This document shows, in pieces, positions 28,209-31,863 of a stretch of DNA of 64,000 nucleotides. The DNA comes from an uncultured Methanosarcinales archaeon. Its GTDB lineage: Archaea > Halobacteriota > Methanosarcinia > Methanotrichales > Methanotrichaceae. The stretch is taken from assembly GCA_963843555.1 (NCBI GenBank), contig CAWJKV010000002.1:96001-160000 (forward strand), given 5' to 3'. Every line of letters starts with the position of its first letter. Within the stretch, counting starts at the first letter, position 1. The position numbers and the translations under genes were made by a program. The notes below the pieces were generated by a model. The model ran no database searches. It saw only the letters and a program-made list of their open reading frames with translations, and was not told where the DNA came from.

Positions 28209-29552
28209 TCAGCAGGTAGGTCCTGGTGGGCACCCTTTTGATGGAGCTGGACGCGCTGGAGCCGGTGAGTCGTCCCATCCTGGAACCCAGCCGAGTGCGG
28301 GAGGCCTGGGCACCATACCAGCACAGCATTTTCGTGCTAGCGTCCCGGCAAATGTGTTGCTGTTGGGCCCAGAGAGCCTGTAGAGGCTCGGGTTGTTGTA
28401 AGATGAGAAGGCATCCCGCAGGCATTGTCCGACATCGGTGACCCCCGGCGCAGGAATACAGTCCAGGCAGGTGGGTGTATTGCCACAAGGATCGGGCGAG
28501 TTGTCCCATTTTTGTCCCCCAGTTCCCGTCACTGGATTGTTGTACCAGTGAGCAGGACAGGTCGGACTGATAATTGCATAGCGGAATGGCGGAGCTTCAA
28601 TATAGGCATGGTTGCCAACAGGGCTGATCTGCAGTTTTCGAGCACATACCTTGAATGGGGTCGCCGATTTGCTGGGCGTTGGAGGAGCCAATTTGGCTGT
28701 TACAATATGAACAGTGGTCTGGCCTTTCAAGAATGTGGACGGATTGGGCTGACCGGTCTTGATGCGGTAGGGGAAGCGGGCATTTGCTCCAGGAGAGCCC
28801 GGCGGCGGGCTGAAATTGACGTTGTTGCCGTCGATAGTCACTGTCGCCATGTAATCGGCATCCTCTATGTCGCATTCAATGAGGCCGTAAACGTAGACGC
28901 CAGTATCGGTATCGAACTCGATCGTGTTTGATTCGCACGATACGCGGATGATGTTCACATGATTGGATTTTACAGGCTGGCGTGCAATCTGGGCAGGCGT
29001 ATGCTGCTGTGCCTGGACCTTTGCCTGTCCAGAATTGAGCACTTGGGCAGAAGCGTCTGATGCCTGGCGTTCTGAGGCGCTTTTGGAGTCCGCAATACGG
29101 AGGGGACCTGAGACGGGGGCTGACTCTTGCTGTCCTACATGAGCCAGCTCATGGGCCAGCAGGGCTCTTCCCCTCGCAACTCCTGGATTATAATGCCCCT
29201 CCTTGAAGACCACATGCTGTCCCACGGTATAGGCCAGAGCGTCTACAGCTTTTGCCGATTCAGAGGCTTTGGCTCCGGTATGCACTCTCACCCGGCTGAA
29301 GTCCTGCCCGAAACGTGGCTCCATGAAGGCTCGCGTAGCCGGATCAATCGGCGCACCGGGCGAGCGCAGAATATCGTGGACAATGGAAGGAGCTGAATTG
29401 GACTCCCGGCTCGAATTCTTCAGAGCCGAACGCTGCAAAAGCTGTCGCTTCTTGCGACAATTGTCGCATTTGCGCTGCAAGAGACGGCTCCCAATAGACG
29501 AATCCGATGGGCCGGGTTTGGCTCCTTTGATGGATTGTAATTGCGTGATCAA
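28209..29552 (-). CDS. DUF4157 (eCIS core domain) protein with putative toxin C-terminus
   Basis: MEPRFGQDFSRVRVH, ALAYTVGQHVVF, LLAHELAHV (HExxH); C-terminal HAYI...GPNSNTF domain; TTG start with AGGAG RBS. Confidence 0.9.
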   Translation of the reverse strand: MITQLQSIKGAKPGPSDSSIGSRLLQRKCDNCRKKRQLLQRSALKNSSRESNSAPSIVHDILRSPGAPIDPATRAFMEPRFGQDFSRVRVHTGAKASESAKAVDALAYTVGQHVVFKEGHYNPGVARGRALLAHELAHVGQQESAPVSGPLRIADSKSASERQASDASAQVLNSGQAKVQAQQHTPAQIARQPVKSNHVNIIRVSCESNTIEFDTDTGVYVYGLIECDIEDADYMATVTIDGNNVNFSPPPGSPGANARFPYRIKTGQPNPSTFLKGQTTVHIVTAKLAPPTPSKSATPFKVCARKLQISPVGNHAYIEAPPFRYAIISPTCPAHWYNNPVTGTGGQKWDNSPDPCGNTPTCLDCIPAPGVTDVGQCLRDAFSSYNNPSLYRLSGPNSNTFAGTLARKCCAGMVPRPPALGWVPGWDDSPAPARPAPSKGCPPGPTC

Positions 29553-29655
29553 GGTAAAATCTCCTAATTATTATAGTATTAAATGAATCATATTCTCTTT
29601 GTACCGTTCTATCTATACCGCAGTTGCCAGGATGGTTGAGCCCTTTAGATCGCTA

Positions 29656-30068
29656 CTATTTGCCGTGAATGACATTGGCAAGTATCTGGACGATTCCGTC
29701 TTCGTTGACTTTACTGGTAGATTCAGCTCCCTGTCGAATCGAAGTGGTGACGGGAAGCCCACGGTTAAGGTCTCGAGTTTATCCGCCTGGAGGTATACTA
29801 TTCCATAAAGGATTCTGCGGCGTCAGGCCGGCATTTCTTGCTGCGGCATAGGAGAGATCGGTAACGTTCCTGCCATCGATATCCAGGATCACAAAGGTGA
29901 GGTCATTGGACCCTTCCTGCTTTGTTATCTCTGCAGCCGGAAACAGGCCAGATCCCTTGAGGCTGACTAGCTTATAGCCTCCTTTCGGAGCCGGGGCCTT
30001 CAAGCCCTTGTTCTCTCGGGGTCGCAGACGCCAGGGGCGGGGAGCCTCATTCGTTGGTCGGATCCCAT
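29656..30068 (-). CDS. Hypothetical ~135-aa protein broken by frameshifts
   Basis: Joined frames read NEAPRPWRLRP...LTFVILDIDGRNV...QNP/YGIVYLQ...VGFPSPLRF../VKVNEDGIVQILANVIHGK*. Confidence 0.65.
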
Positions 30069-30207
30069 TTGAATTTAGCTTCCTATTGAATACCGTCTGG
30101 ATTATGCAGTACTTTTTTCCATAGTTCCCAGGTCTTCATACGACAACTGTCATTTGGTGTTAAGGCTCATGGGGACTGTGACCAAATACGTCTTTAACAG
30201 GAAGAAC

Positions 30208-31863
30208 CTATTGCCTTCGACGATTGCATTTATCTTCGGTTTCTCTTTCACTGCAGGCAAAGTCGTGATGGTGAACTGAACATTTCTTACCATCCGGTCT
30301 GTTCTGATCTAGATCGCAAATGCTGAGGAACGTTCTATCATGATTGCATAATCGCTGAGCCTCTGCCTTGTTCTTGCGATTACATTCCGTTCGACCCATC
30401 CAGATCGTATGTATTCTTCCTCCACCACACTCCTTGTCACCCTGACACTTGCAAATAGCGCAGGCGTAGGTAGCGCCAGCAATATGGGCCTCGCCGCCTC
30501 CTTCCTCTTTGCCGGCTTTTCCACTTTCTGGTGCTGGGCGACTTTCCCAACGGAGTAAAAATTGGGCCGCAGCCCTGGCGTAGTTCTCGTCAAGCGAGGC
30601 GATCAGGGCATAGGAAGACTCGATGTCGGCCTCGGCATAGATGTGCGAACCGAGGAACACATCGACCTCATCCACCGTGGTGGGTACGTCGTGTGCGGTG
30701 GCCAGCGGTTCGGCAAAACCGGCAAAGTCCCCCTCATCCACAGTCGTAATGTTGAAGGTGAGCCCGGCCGACCCTCCCTCTCCAACCGGGATTTCCAATT
30801 CGACTCTGCCCAAGTCGCGGAGCTTCGCCGCCGAGACGCCCCCGGCGGTTTTCGGCCTAAACAGTTCCCGGTCTGGAGGTGCTGGATTATCCGCTGTTCT
30901 TTCAGTAATTCGACCCCAGGTGACGCCATAGGCTTTGGCGTGCAGCCTGTCCTCGGCCTTGGCGGTGCCGTCGATGTCGCCACTAATTCTCAGTTGCATA
31001 AAGTGGTTGTCCTGGCCATCATTTTTGAAGATGTAATGCATGTTCAACTGGCGAGAGACCTGGGCTTCGCCGCCCACCTCAGTCCGCACCCAGCCCTGCT
31101 CTTGCCAGGCTCTGGCACTTCCGAAAACCTTAGCGCCCGTATCAGGGGCTGAGGCCGTACTCCGGGCGGTGCCATTTCCATTGGTGAAGGATTGTTCCCG
31201 ACCTATGTCAGGCGTCACCCGGTCCAGCCGCCATCTTCCCTGGATGCAAGGGCTAGTCAGGCGCTGGGCGACAAGCGAGGGCTGAGCCTGGTTGCCGCCG
31301 GTCTGCTGGACTACGTGGGTCAATTCGTGAGCCAAAAGGTGGCGTCCAGTCGGGGTGTGTGGGGCGTACTGGCCTGGGTCAAAGACAACATGATGGTTCA
31401 CGGTGAAGGCGTGGGCATTCATGAGTCGGGCTGCTTCACCGGCCTTGGCGTCGGTGTGAATTAGGACCGTGCTGAAGTCATAGCGGCCTTCAGATTGGGG
31501 AGCGGGCTGATGGTTAATCTGCCTGGCGACGGTGTCCGCCTCGTGTTCGAACTGATCGTGCTGCCCGCCGACGGCTAAGCGCGCTGGCACTGGGGCTGGG
31601 GTACGGACGTGTGTCTGTACTGTGCTGAAATCGTGGCTGAAGCGCGGCTCCATAAAGGCGCGGGTGGTCGGGTCGAGCGGTGCCCCTGGCGAGCGCAGCA
31701 CCTCATGCACGATAGACGGCACTCTCTTTGGAGCAGAACCAACGGCCGAGCGCTGTAATTTCTTATCCTTCTTGCGACATTCGTCGCATTTCCGCTGCAA
31801 GATGCCTCCAGCTAACGATGTTGAACTCTGCTTTTGAACTTGAGCAACCATCTGTCGGTTCAT
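30208..31863 (-). CDS. DUF4157 (eCIS core domain) protein with beta-rich middle and Cys-rich tail
   Basis: LQRKC..C, MEPRF.HDFS.V, AFTV.HHVVF, LLAHELTHVVQQ; 10 Cys in the last ~85 aa. Confidence 0.9.
   Translation of the reverse strand: MNRQMVAQVQKQSSTSLAGGILQRKCDECRKKDKKLQRSAVGSAPKRVPSIVHEVLRSPGAPLDPTTRAFMEPRFSHDFSTVQTHVRTPAPVPARLAVGGQHDQFEHEADTVARQINHQPAPQSEGRYDFSTVLIHTDAKAGEAARLMNAHAFTVNHHVVFDPGQYAPHTPTGRHLLAHELTHVVQQTGGNQAQPSLVAQRLTSPCIQGRWRLDRVTPDIGREQSFTNGNGTARSTASAPDTGAKVFGSARAWQEQGWVRTEVGGEAQVSRQLNMHYIFKNDGQDNHFMQLRISGDIDGTAKAEDRLHAKAYGVTWGRITERTADNPAPPDRELFRPKTAGGVSAAKLRDLGRVELEIPVGEGGSAGLTFNITTVDEGDFAGFAEPLATAHDVPTTVDEVDVFLGSHIYAEADIESSYALIASLDENYARAAAQFLLRWESRPAPESGKAGKEEGGGEAHIAGATYACAICKCQGDKECGGGRIHTIWMGRTECNRKNKAEAQRLCNHDRTFLSICDLDQNRPDGKKCSVHHHDFACSERETEDKCNRRRQ

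Follow-up and report, generated by a model that had tools for sequence, protein, structure and literature searches.

Proteins with an N-terminal PVC-metallopeptidase domain (the same as DUF4157, PF13699) are the effectors of the PVC-SS, a polymorphic toxin design in which a constant HExxH domain is followed by highly variable C-termini and whose locus, derived from a phage tail, also encodes a CDC48-like AAA ATPase (Zhang et al. 2012, PMC3482391; Geller et al. 2021, PMC8213781). As far as the available text of these papers goes, euryarchaeal cases are included, immunity genes are commonly missing in eCIS, even where the toxins act in the cytoplasm, the papain-like toxins described carry a Cys, and conflict systems typically show rapid swapping (PMC3482391). 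In AlgoCIS, the cargo pair Cgo1 and Cgo2 (PROCIS) combines a common N-terminal domain and DUF4157 with C-terminal domains that are unrelated; the N-terminal domain is needed for cargo loading, DUF4157 is dispensable, and the DUF4157 proteins are located in the tube lumen (bioRxiv 10.64898/2026.05.27.728243). The AlgoCIS leader is said to be disordered and system-specific, and CxxC is not mentioned in the available part of that report. In archaea, the CIS/T6SS of Halogeometricum borinquense (Zachs et al. 2024, PMC11566945) encodes DUF4157 proteins in an interspacing region; these effectors show CIS-dependent secretion, some of them are toxic, immunity partners are encoded downstream of them, the system works in a membrane-bound mode, and its targets are archaea. 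In a source available in part, spike-associated adaptors have been described among DUF4157 proteins as well. In the accessible text of recent papers, methanogen CIS are called unexplored (PMC11566945) and bacterial targeting by archaeal contractile injection systems is described as not yet tested (PMC12352652); archaeal CIS effectors are also described as hard to identify (bioRxiv 2024.05.23.595608).

Here, we have analysed a window (the whole stretch of DNA, 64,000 nucleotides) whose host genome encodes the methanogen marker McrA, and in which genes for a sheath, tubes, baseplate (gp25 and J-like proteins), spike and PAAR-like proteins, Pvc16 and an AAA ATPase are clustered according to Pfam (Table 1). 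We take the names of the hub, the LysM-position protein and the 744-aa protein from gene position, as these three have no Pfam match. DUF6519 corresponds to eBAP5 in the available text of PMC12923769. Two DUF4157 genes, A and B, lie on the minus strand between the AAA ATPase and second tube genes, at the coordinates that a sequence-only reading had given them, and PF13699 was found in 40 of the 105 genomes of the host's family. The type and architecture of the system are not new, having been known since 2012, euryarchaea included (Zhang et al. 2012, PMC3482391, as far as available). Unlike the PVC-SS described, the locus has a fixed slot of one to five genes in a methanogen family, a second level of swapping in which tips are exchanged on a carrier, and a permuted papain-like tip of the Ser type; AlgoCIS differs in its bacterial host and its payloads. 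What is new is the methanogen cargo slot, together with a candidate serine-type envelope toxin, and the locus offers a defined cargo slot for a methanogen family with a named candidate, the A2 module of A.

Table 1. Positions of the eCIS locus, the cargo genes and their modules in the window
Feature	Position	Strand	Basis
eCIS locus, all parts present: sheath, gp19 tube, T4-baseplate-like protein, Pvc16, AAA ATPase, cargo slot, second tube, LysM-position small protein, hub, spike OB domain, PAAR-like DUF4280, gp25, two baseplate J-like proteins, 744-aa protein, DUF6519 fibre-anchor protein	15084..39435	-	Pfam scan
Broken leader remnant of third DUF4157 cargo gene, downstream of fibre gene	14474..14712	-	
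Cargo gene A, 447 aa, TTG start	28209..29552	-	ORF and Pfam
A leader, residues 1-67, LQRKCDNC..LQR, likely loading sequence	29352..29552	-	alignment, leader comparison
A DUF4157 core, residues 68-145	29118..29351	-	Pfam, HELAH at 134
A1, residues 197-287, predicted L,D-transpeptidase (YkuD)-like fold, no His-Cys catalytic motif	28692..28964	-	model
A2, residues 299-447, predicted permuted papain/NlpC-P60 fold, His315 and GPNS398NTF, 10 Cys, DUF3750-related	28212..28658	-	model and relatives
Frameshifted remnant of 138-aa gene	29659..30018	-	comparison with relatives
Cargo gene B, 551 aa	30208..31863	-	ORF and Pfam
B leader, residues 1-60, LQRKCDEC..LQR, likely loading sequence	31684..31863	-	alignment, leader comparison, published eCIS analogy
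B DUF4157 core, residues 61-190, insertion-split, HELTH at 179	31294..31683	-	Pfam
B1, residues 204-443, predicted jelly-roll beta-sandwich like lectins/carbohydrate-binding modules	30535..31254	-	model
B2, residues 464-551, mobile 10-Cys tip, GC 47% vs 59% in B1	30211..30474	-	relatives' comparison

The DUF4157 core proposed for both proteins is borne out by the PF13699 eCIS_core profile, which matched A with E 6e-32 (110 bits) and B with E 1e-28 (99.4 bits; cut-off 22), and the HExxHxxQ signature reads HELAHVGQ in A and HELTHVVQ in B. The core of B is interrupted by an insertion of ~50 residues carrying an EHEAD motif; a putative third zinc ligand might be the Glu of ERQA, 27 residues past the motif start, in A, and that of EHEAD, 73 residues before it, in B. 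The sequence-only reading had further held that both proteins start with a shared stretch, LQRKCD.CRKK..LQRSA...PSIVH..LRSPGAP.DP.TRAFMEPRF, and diverge completely after a QR motif. The stretch is real (alignment score 194 vs a maximum of 44 over 300 shuffles; DNA identity 74-79%), but it begins at residue 25 of A and residue 22 of B rather than at the N-terminus. The tails are indeed unrelated (score 37, equalled by 52 of 300 shuffles), but similarity stops just past HExxH..QQ, and the boundary in A is RQ, not QR. Exactly ten Cys are found in the final module of A (299-447) and in that of B (464-551), but not in the whole tails, which have 12 (A) and 11 (B). As these modules do not align (score 19) and other tips on the B carrier have 0, 6 or 8 Cys, the match in number is a coincidence, and was rejected as a shared feature. 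The two genes are separated by 655 bp, with a frameshifted unrelated gene in between.

It had also been proposed that the CxxC-containing leader is a loading or targeting module. Comparing only pairs with unrelated tails, we found leader similarity to be higher within loci (median 0.24, 40 pairs) than between them (0.10, 943 pairs), whereas the similarity of the DUF4157 core is 0.52 in both cases. This within-locus likeness and the deletion data from AlgoCIS, as far as reported in the available text, fit the proposal, and by this analogy the leaders of A and B are likely to be loading sequences. The CxxC, however, is not a conserved requirement: QRxCxxC is present in just 19 of 80 family proteins, which rules it out as an essential family motif, and such a Cys pair is absent from 38 of the 80. 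Co-variation with the AAA ATPase was not found: leader similarity, with crude leader cuts, did not track that of the ATPase (Mantel rho 0.05, p 0.33).

Comparison of the slot across related genomes gave good support to the claim that this archaeal eCIS carries payloads which can be exchanged while the front end stays constant. All 20 loci that span the AAA ATPase to the second tube gene (19 genomes, the window included) have one to five DUF4157 genes each, and their 45 tails fall into 40 clusters while the constant N-terminal part is kept. Each tail of A and B consists of two modules, and swapping occurs at two levels, i.e. of whole tails and of tips on a carrier. In a close relative (G029), the tip of B has been exchanged at a sharp breakpoint, DNA identity being 86% to the end of B1 (314/365) and 46% beyond it (135/295); in the orthologue of G076, both parts are kept at 93-94% DNA identity. 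Among 70 tails of relatives scanned by Pfam, 56 had no match and seven carried peptidoglycan-related domains (OmpA 3, PG_binding_1 2, M23 1, YkuD 1), while Ntox44, EndoU, C92 or TGL were found in others. No cognate immunity gene was found directly downstream of A, which is followed by the second tube gene, or of B, which is followed by the broken gene. As eCIS often have no immunity genes (PMC3482391, PMC8213781, in the text available), this absence is no proof of a foreign target.

The A1 module resembles L,D-transpeptidases in its predicted fold (best match Z 7.0, rmsd 2.9, 82 aligned), with many such rows at Z 5-7 over ~80 residues. The His and Cys catalytic motif of YkuD was not found in A1, nor was sequence similarity to the YkuD tail of a relative. 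This motif lies near the C-terminal strands of YkuD domains; by column conservation, the conserved Cys 206 and 227 of A1 sit in N-terminal strands. The modelled A2 has the His strand ahead of the nucleophile helix and is most like TseH, a Vibrio cholerae T6SS effector (PDB 6v98; Z 7.8, rmsd 3.4, 112 aligned), PLAAT4 (Z 7.1) and deSUMOylase (Z 6.9), with YiiX also among these fold relatives (Z 6.2-7.8). Values of Z 7-8 are in a range rated common, so that the case for A1 and A2 leans on the many rows of the same family and on the motif. The Foldseek search of the A tail had no match at E<=0.001 and gave PLAAT4 as a weak row; papain-fold matches came from the Z-scored comparison, whereas PDB sequence searches with A2 profiles had no relevant match. 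A2 is unlike the TseH group in the Ser at its nucleophile position, its 10 Cys, its 7-16% identity to solved structures and its fusion behind an LDT-like domain. The catalytic Cys of papain/NlpC-P60 hydrolases is not found in A2, which has Ser398 instead. His315 is kept in all 107 aligned relatives, and the nucleophile position is Ser in 144 of 150 relatives, Cys in two and unaligned in four. DUF3750 (PF12570), which likewise has Ser for Cys, matched A2 weakly (E 0.004, 18.3 bits, below the cut-off of 25); the A2 relatives P0079 and L120 pass this cut-off, hence A2 is related to DUF3750 without being a member by cut-off. In the available text of PMC10318531, Ser-type papain-like families including DUF3750 are said to be possibly weak or inactive and DUF3750 activity is called speculative; A2 would bear on whether such Ser-substituted domains are active enzymes, a question left open there.

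A2-type domains also occur outside eCIS. Among 37 A2 loci, which were chosen by motifs, one of them including the Ser, and which count the near-duplicates L102/L105, L109/L110 and L090/L091, the domain forms the C-terminal end of Rhs proteins in 19 bacterial loci. Downstream of the Rhs tip, one conserved partner family is encoded in 12 of these 19, and 11 of its 12 members have a hydrophobic N-terminus ending in Cys, as in lipoprotein-like proteins of the immunity type. Neither the methanogen itself (G000) nor 40 methanogen stretches were found to have this partner family, and it was also missing from the 18 A2 loci without Rhs, most of which are of the eCIS type. The identity of A2 to the aligned Rhs tip is just 35%, so its function may differ. 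As described in the available text, TseH itself acts as a toxin in the periplasm, is paired with an immunity protein and has relatives borne by Rhs proteins. Neither PF00905 nor PF00912 had a match in G000 (82% complete), compared with 10 of 14 control genomes that had one.

In B, the B1 module is predicted to be a jelly roll, its closest fold matches being Bd1399 (Z 10.5, rmsd 3.2, 139 aligned), Fbs2 (Z 8.4) and CBM61 (Z 8.2). It would bind a glycan if the likeness extends to function, of which the fold alone is no proof. B1 bears different tips in relatives, and modules of the B2 type also occur internally, ahead of other domains. No usable match to B2 was found in Pfam, NCBIfam, PDB sequences, the Atlas or fold libraries, B2 not having been modelled by itself.

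We consider it most probable, at about 0.6, that A and B are likely particle-injected cargo of a methanogen eCIS and that A is a predicted bacterial-envelope toxin. As to its parts, there is little doubt that the two are eCIS cargo with exchangeable tails, an envelope-acting antibacterial role for A is rather favoured, and a toxin role for B is doubtful; toxicity is predicted, with context lending good support in the case of A and little in that of B. The basic, non-hydrophobic leader would likely direct the unfolded chain into the tube via the adjacent AAA ATPase, DUF4157 being an accessory domain, and the Cys-rich tips might fold once injected, in a compartment that is oxidising, for example the periplasm. 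There, A1 would serve as a non-catalytic binder of peptidoglycan or a stem peptide, and the Ser-His pair of A2 would cleave an amide or ester bond of the envelope by hydrolysis, while B1 would attach to a glycan and position the tip B2; the archaeon might need no immunity gene because it would lack the target. A2 is predicted to be toxic when present in the periplasm of bacteria, to need Ser398 and His315 for this, and to leave the producer unharmed. These observations suggest a possible archaeon-to-bacterium attack by a methanogen eCIS. A bolder form, to which we give somewhat less than even odds, is that methanogens of this family turn their eCIS on bacteria, A carrying the first example of a family of envelope toxins of the permuted papain type with a Ser nucleophile, which is shared with bacterial Rhs toxins and neutralised there by a hitherto undescribed family of lipoprotein immunity proteins, and the slot being renewed as binding carriers and disulfide-rich tips are shuffled at two levels.

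The likeness of B1 to carbohydrate-binding jelly rolls, the want of a catalytic motif in A1, the Ser in place of Cys in A2 (with DUF3750 activity called speculative in the available text of PMC10318531) and the internal occurrence of B2-type modules would also fit cargo that is not toxic, i.e. binding or signalling modules with a modulating effect on partners, for example syntrophic bacteria or eukaryotic grazers, and two of the three DUF4157 candidates in Danov's table were harmless in yeast. Such a role is unlikely, as A2 occupies the toxin position of Rhs proteins and, in 12 of 19 loci, is closely linked there to a lipoprotein-like partner, recognised toxin domains sit in the same slot of relatives, and fast swapping is typical of conflict systems (PMC3482391, as available). 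Lower still do we rate a membrane-bound or intracellular machine like those of haloarchaea and Streptomyces, whose DUF4157 cargo strikes other archaea or the producer. The haloarchaeal CIS does secrete DUF4157 proteins, several of which are toxic to another archaeon (PMC11566945, in the part available), and nucleases among the relatives' tails (Ntox44, EndoU) could hit any cell; however, A and B, in contrast to the toxins of the haloarchaeal toxin-immunity pairs, are not followed by an intact partner gene, no 19-residue window in the locus proteins is strongly hydrophobic (Kyte-Doolittle maximum 1.75), the locus includes a fibre-anchor gene, and the folds and relatives of A point to bacterial envelopes. 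It is most improbable that the two proteins are non-injected structural or adaptor subunits (spike- or baseplate-bound, or tape-measure-like) with receptor-binding variable ends: B1 does resemble tailspike and fibre lectin domains, and a Streptomyces DUF4157 protein was assayed, in a source available in part, for spike-complex binding and is paired with a separate cargo, but gene number and tails vary freely over the 20 loci while structural genes are constant, and the AlgoCIS proteins, in the text available, lie in the lumen.

The 138-aa gene whose remnant lies between A and B is intact in G021 and G062 and partial in G027 and G076; it had no Pfam or NCBIfam match, and the Atlas search returned unnamed clusters only. 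A role as the immunity gene of B is not supported, since the gene does not follow the B orthologues in G076 and G029, and in the G062 stretch it is found at a distance from DUF4157 genes. A promoter and terminator scan of the sequence, by a method unsuited to archaea, was at chance level. Each of nine sequencing runs checked contained just 5-12% of the sequence words; in the four of the nine that were looked at, a 923-nt contig from an RNA library, which has 61 differences, spans 28294-29216 in A, and no RNA piece listed covers the B tail. These contigs do not show transcription and were therefore left out of the evidence. At the place of the third, broken DUF4157 gene downstream of the fibre gene, G075, G088, G065 and G016 have intact DUF4157 genes.

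The two DUF4157 genes, A and B, are real ORFs that each match PF13699 (eCIS_core), and the sequence-only reading of two proteins with a common front and unrelated C-termini is borne out: the leader (the N-terminal stretch before the DUF4157 core) and the start of the core align with a score of 194, against a shuffle maximum of 44, while the tails score 37, which was equalled in 52 of 300 shuffles and indicates that they are unrelated. The leader motif said to open both proteins is also real, but it starts at residue 25 in A and 22 in B, the core of B is broken by an insertion of ~50 residues, and the likeness ends right behind HExxH. 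Likewise, the claim of exactly 10 Cys is true of the final module of each protein, but the two modules cannot be aligned and Cys counts of 0, 6 or 8 are seen in other tips borne by B's carrier, so the match is meaningless. Both proteins lack hydrophobic signals and transmembrane stretches, and no further intact DUF4157 gene was found in the 82%-complete source genome.

A and B sit inside a complete eCIS locus, in what we call the slot, which is bounded by the AAA ATPase gene together with an 83-aa gene on one side and by the second tube gene on the other. As the source genome encodes McrA and no penicillin-binding transpeptidase or transglycosylase family was matched in it (in the 82% covered), the host is a methanogen.

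Coordinates in the window of the two cargo genes and associated features
Feature	Position	Strand	Remark
Gene A	28209-29552	minus	447 aa
Gene B	30208-31863	minus	551 aa
eCIS locus	15084-39435		complete; surrounds A and B
Third DUF4157 cargo gene	14474-14712	minus	broken leader; second cargo site, downstream of DUF6519 fibre gene
138-aa gene	29659-30018	minus	remnant, frameshifted; intact in two relatives
Second baseplate J-like gene	21533-21904, 18859-21591		two overlapping ORFs
AAA ATPase gene	33874-34230, 32124-33932		two overlapping ORFs
Low-GC stretch	41001-42000		1 kb, 26% GC

PF13699 was matched in 40 of the 105 family genomes, and 40 stretches were fetched around the stronger matches, a selection from all matches in which the cut-off passed over weaker ones, such as a 503-aa ORF in G021. 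With the window, these stretches hold 80 DUF4157 ORFs, including 72 with tails of at least 60 aa that fall into 62 clusters. All 20 loci running from the AAA gene to the second tube gene (19 genomes, window included) have DUF4157 genes in the slot (one in six loci, two in six, three in five, four in two and five in one), although this count tells of gene position and not of presence in every eCIS, since the loci were picked for having DUF4157. Of the 46 slot genes, 45 have tails, which form 40 clusters. When the slot was aligned over related genomes, as had been proposed, the C-termini differed and the tip of B proved to be exchanged in one relative, upholding the idea of exchangeable payload tails. 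In this relative (G029), B's carrier bears a different tip, with a DNA identity of 86% up to the codons for WESRP and 46% beyond, while the identities across the same breakpoint are 93% and 94% in G076, a genome with a 91% identical AAA protein, orthologues of both A and B, and two further cargo genes. Among the 27 database relatives of B, the carrier module B1 (residues 204-443) is joined to the tip B2 (464-551) in 10, the window's own included, 13 have B1 but no B2, and four have B2 but no B1; a further search returned 21 proteins with B2, some of more than 1100 aa with B2 internal. The GC content is 47% for B2 and 59% for B1. The A2 module of A (299-447) lacks A1 (197-287) in 98 of A's best 120 relatives. 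Swapping thus takes place at two levels, that of whole tails and that of tips on a carrier. Five relatives (P0122, P0124, P0136, P0137 and P0140) have small tips with 6 or 8 Cys in B2's place after B1; Pfam gave no match on those Cys-rich alternative tips that were scanned.

The CxxC thought to be conserved in the leader is a detail that carries no meaning for the family: of its 80 DUF4157 proteins, 19 have the QRxCxxC form, 22 have a different CxxC, one has a more widely spaced Cys pair and 38 have no pair. Where two proteins have unrelated tails, their leaders resemble each other more if both come from one locus (median normalised score 0.24, 40 pairs) than if they come from different loci (0.10, 943 pairs), whereas cores score 0.52 in both cases; recent duplication could be an alternative cause of the within-locus effect. 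Leader likeness did not track AAA likeness (Mantel rho 0.05, p 0.33, with crude leader cuts). In AlgoCIS, loading depends on the N-terminal domain, can do without DUF4157 and is brought about by the AAA protein (bioRxiv 10.64898/2026.05.27.728243); by analogy, the leader of A and B likely acts in loading. Tails are richer in Cys in proteins with a QRxCxxC leader (19 vs 53 proteins of L031-L070 and the window, Mann-Whitney p 0.0003), a lead only, as kin are not independent. An ExEA-type motif, which may supply the third zinc ligand, was looked for in 76 proteins of the same set: it precedes HExxH in 46, follows it in 14, flanks it on both sides in four and was not found in 12. In A, the motif holds a Gln. 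It may be a movable helix.

The proposed modelling and fold search yielded matches for A1, A2 and B1 and none for B2. Residues 192-447 of A were modelled with a mean pLDDT of 89. Many L,D-transpeptidases are among the fold matches of the predicted A1 (best Z 7.0, rmsd 2.9, 82 residues), but A1 shows no catalytic His-Cys motif. For the predicted A2, the best match is TseH (Z 7.8, rmsd 3.4, 112 residues), followed by PLAAT4 (7.1), a deSUMOylase (6.9) and YiiX (6.2). The Z values of both modules are middling, and the weight of the predicted folds lies in the two blocks of same-family rows. Among close relatives of A2, His315 is kept in 107 of 107 aligned and Ser398 in 106; of 205 library relatives, the best 150 have Ser in the nucleophile column in 144 cases and Cys in two (in the same GxNxNTF motif), with four unaligned, and the His column has His in 103 and Ser in one, with 46 unaligned. 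A2 also matches DUF3750 below the cut-off; this family is described as papain-like, with Ser replacing Cys, and its activity is called speculative (PMC10318531). Among the titled relatives of A2, the nearest belongs to a Methanosarcinales archaeon (L084), not counted apart from the family set. By eye, two more tails in the slot of G076 (L035:10842-12149 and 7683-8843) have motifs like the permuted papain group, with a Ser in one case (GPNSNTY) and a Cys in the other (YTCTTY). In two Methanosarcina-related loci (L097, L099), the last of three tandem DUF4157 genes bears A2 and is followed by a DUF4440 protein.

Residues 200-551 of B gave a mean pLDDT of 80, with ~60-75 for B2. B1 is a predicted jelly-roll sandwich whose nearest match is Bd1399 of Bdellovibrio (Z 10.5, rmsd 3.2, 139 residues), ahead of Fbs2 and CBM61; no match was found for B2 as modelled within these residues. 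The best reading of B is that a putative binding carrier bears an exchangeable tip.

A2 also occurs outside eCIS. Of 37 loci with A2 relatives, selected by motifs and including near-duplicates, 18 are of DUF4157/eCIS type or unresolved fragments and 19 encode Rhs proteins, in which A2 is C-terminal, past the end of the Rhs core (16 by Pfam, three by motif). The tip of one of these (L102) is 35% identical to the window's A2. The next gene belongs to one common family in 12 of the 19 (L101-L105, L107, L108, L111, L115-L118; nine members built the profile and three more were recovered with it), while in the other seven the Rhs gene precedes a gene for another protein with a hydrophobic N-terminus in four, a membrane protein gene in one and no nearby gene in two. 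The common family, undescribed and lipoprotein-like, has an invariant C-x-M and L-C, a PEGA domain in some members, extra copies in L104, L107 and L111 and, by eye, a hydrophobic N-terminus ending in Cys in 11 of 12; it was not found in the source genome, the fetched methanogen stretches or the other 18 A2 loci. Such an arrangement would be typical of a toxin that acts on the envelope and whose immunity protein is exported, and is likened to TseH-TsiH, reported, in the part of the source drawn on, as a toxin with its immunity protein (PMC4453574).

Pfam matched 14 of 70 tails of relatives, seven of them peptidoglycan-related (OmpA three, PG_binding_1 two, M23 one, YkuD one), the others being Ntox44 (two), TGL (two), EndoU, C92 and DUF6402. 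As peptidoglycan-related domains occur here in a methanogen family, a bacterial target fits for at least part of the arsenal; archaeal or self targets seem distinctly improbable. In the most likely mechanism, the leader would steer the protein, still unfolded, into the tube for injection by the particle, the Cys-rich modules would fold in an oxidising compartment, A1 would bind cell-wall material and A2 would hydrolyse an envelope bond, and the producer would need no immunity. Of this picture, the locus context, the polymorphism, the breakpoints, the conserved residues and the linkage to Rhs proteins and their partner family are shown and the folds are predicted, while loading, disulfides, substrate and target are inferred. 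That the cargo modulates its recipient without toxicity is somewhat more plausible than archaeal or self targets, though still unlikely, and a role as an adaptor is the least probable.

The feature is real, and the central idea of an archaeal polymorphic system with exchangeable payloads is right, yet it was already published: in 2012, Zhang et al. (PMC3482391) reported proteins in which a constant PVC-metallopeptidase is joined to toxin C-termini that vary, also in euryarchaea and often without immunity genes. In the portions drawn on, Geller 2021 (PMC8213781) and Danov 2024 (PMC11297309) establish DUF4157 as an eCIS toxin marker, the latter naming one methanogen with five predicted DUF4157 toxins, Zachs 2024 (PMC11566945) reports toxic DUF4157 proteins in haloarchaea and leaves methanogens unexplored, and PMC12352652 states that archaeal CIS action against bacteria remains to be tested. 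In the literature covered, mostly the main texts of open papers, we found no description of the DUF3750-like toxin domain, the lipoprotein partner or the methanogen slot. What the present analysis contributes is a concrete, testable candidate for a toxin that an archaeon would inject into bacteria, of a serine type that is uncharacterised.

The second cargo site holds an intact DUF4157 gene in several relatives. The 655-bp gap between A and B contains the remnant of the 138-aa gene, whose protein was found in five of the 105 family genomes, with copies at L034:10214-10630 and L073:1494-1913. Four genomes have this gene directly upstream of one of their slot DUF4157 genes (intact in one, broken or partial in three, window included), and in G062 it lies amid unrelated genes. 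The splits in the J-like and AAA genes may be frameshifts or assembly errors and could bear on whether this copy is functional. The low-GC stretch lies just upstream of the eCIS region, in a genome of ~51% GC.
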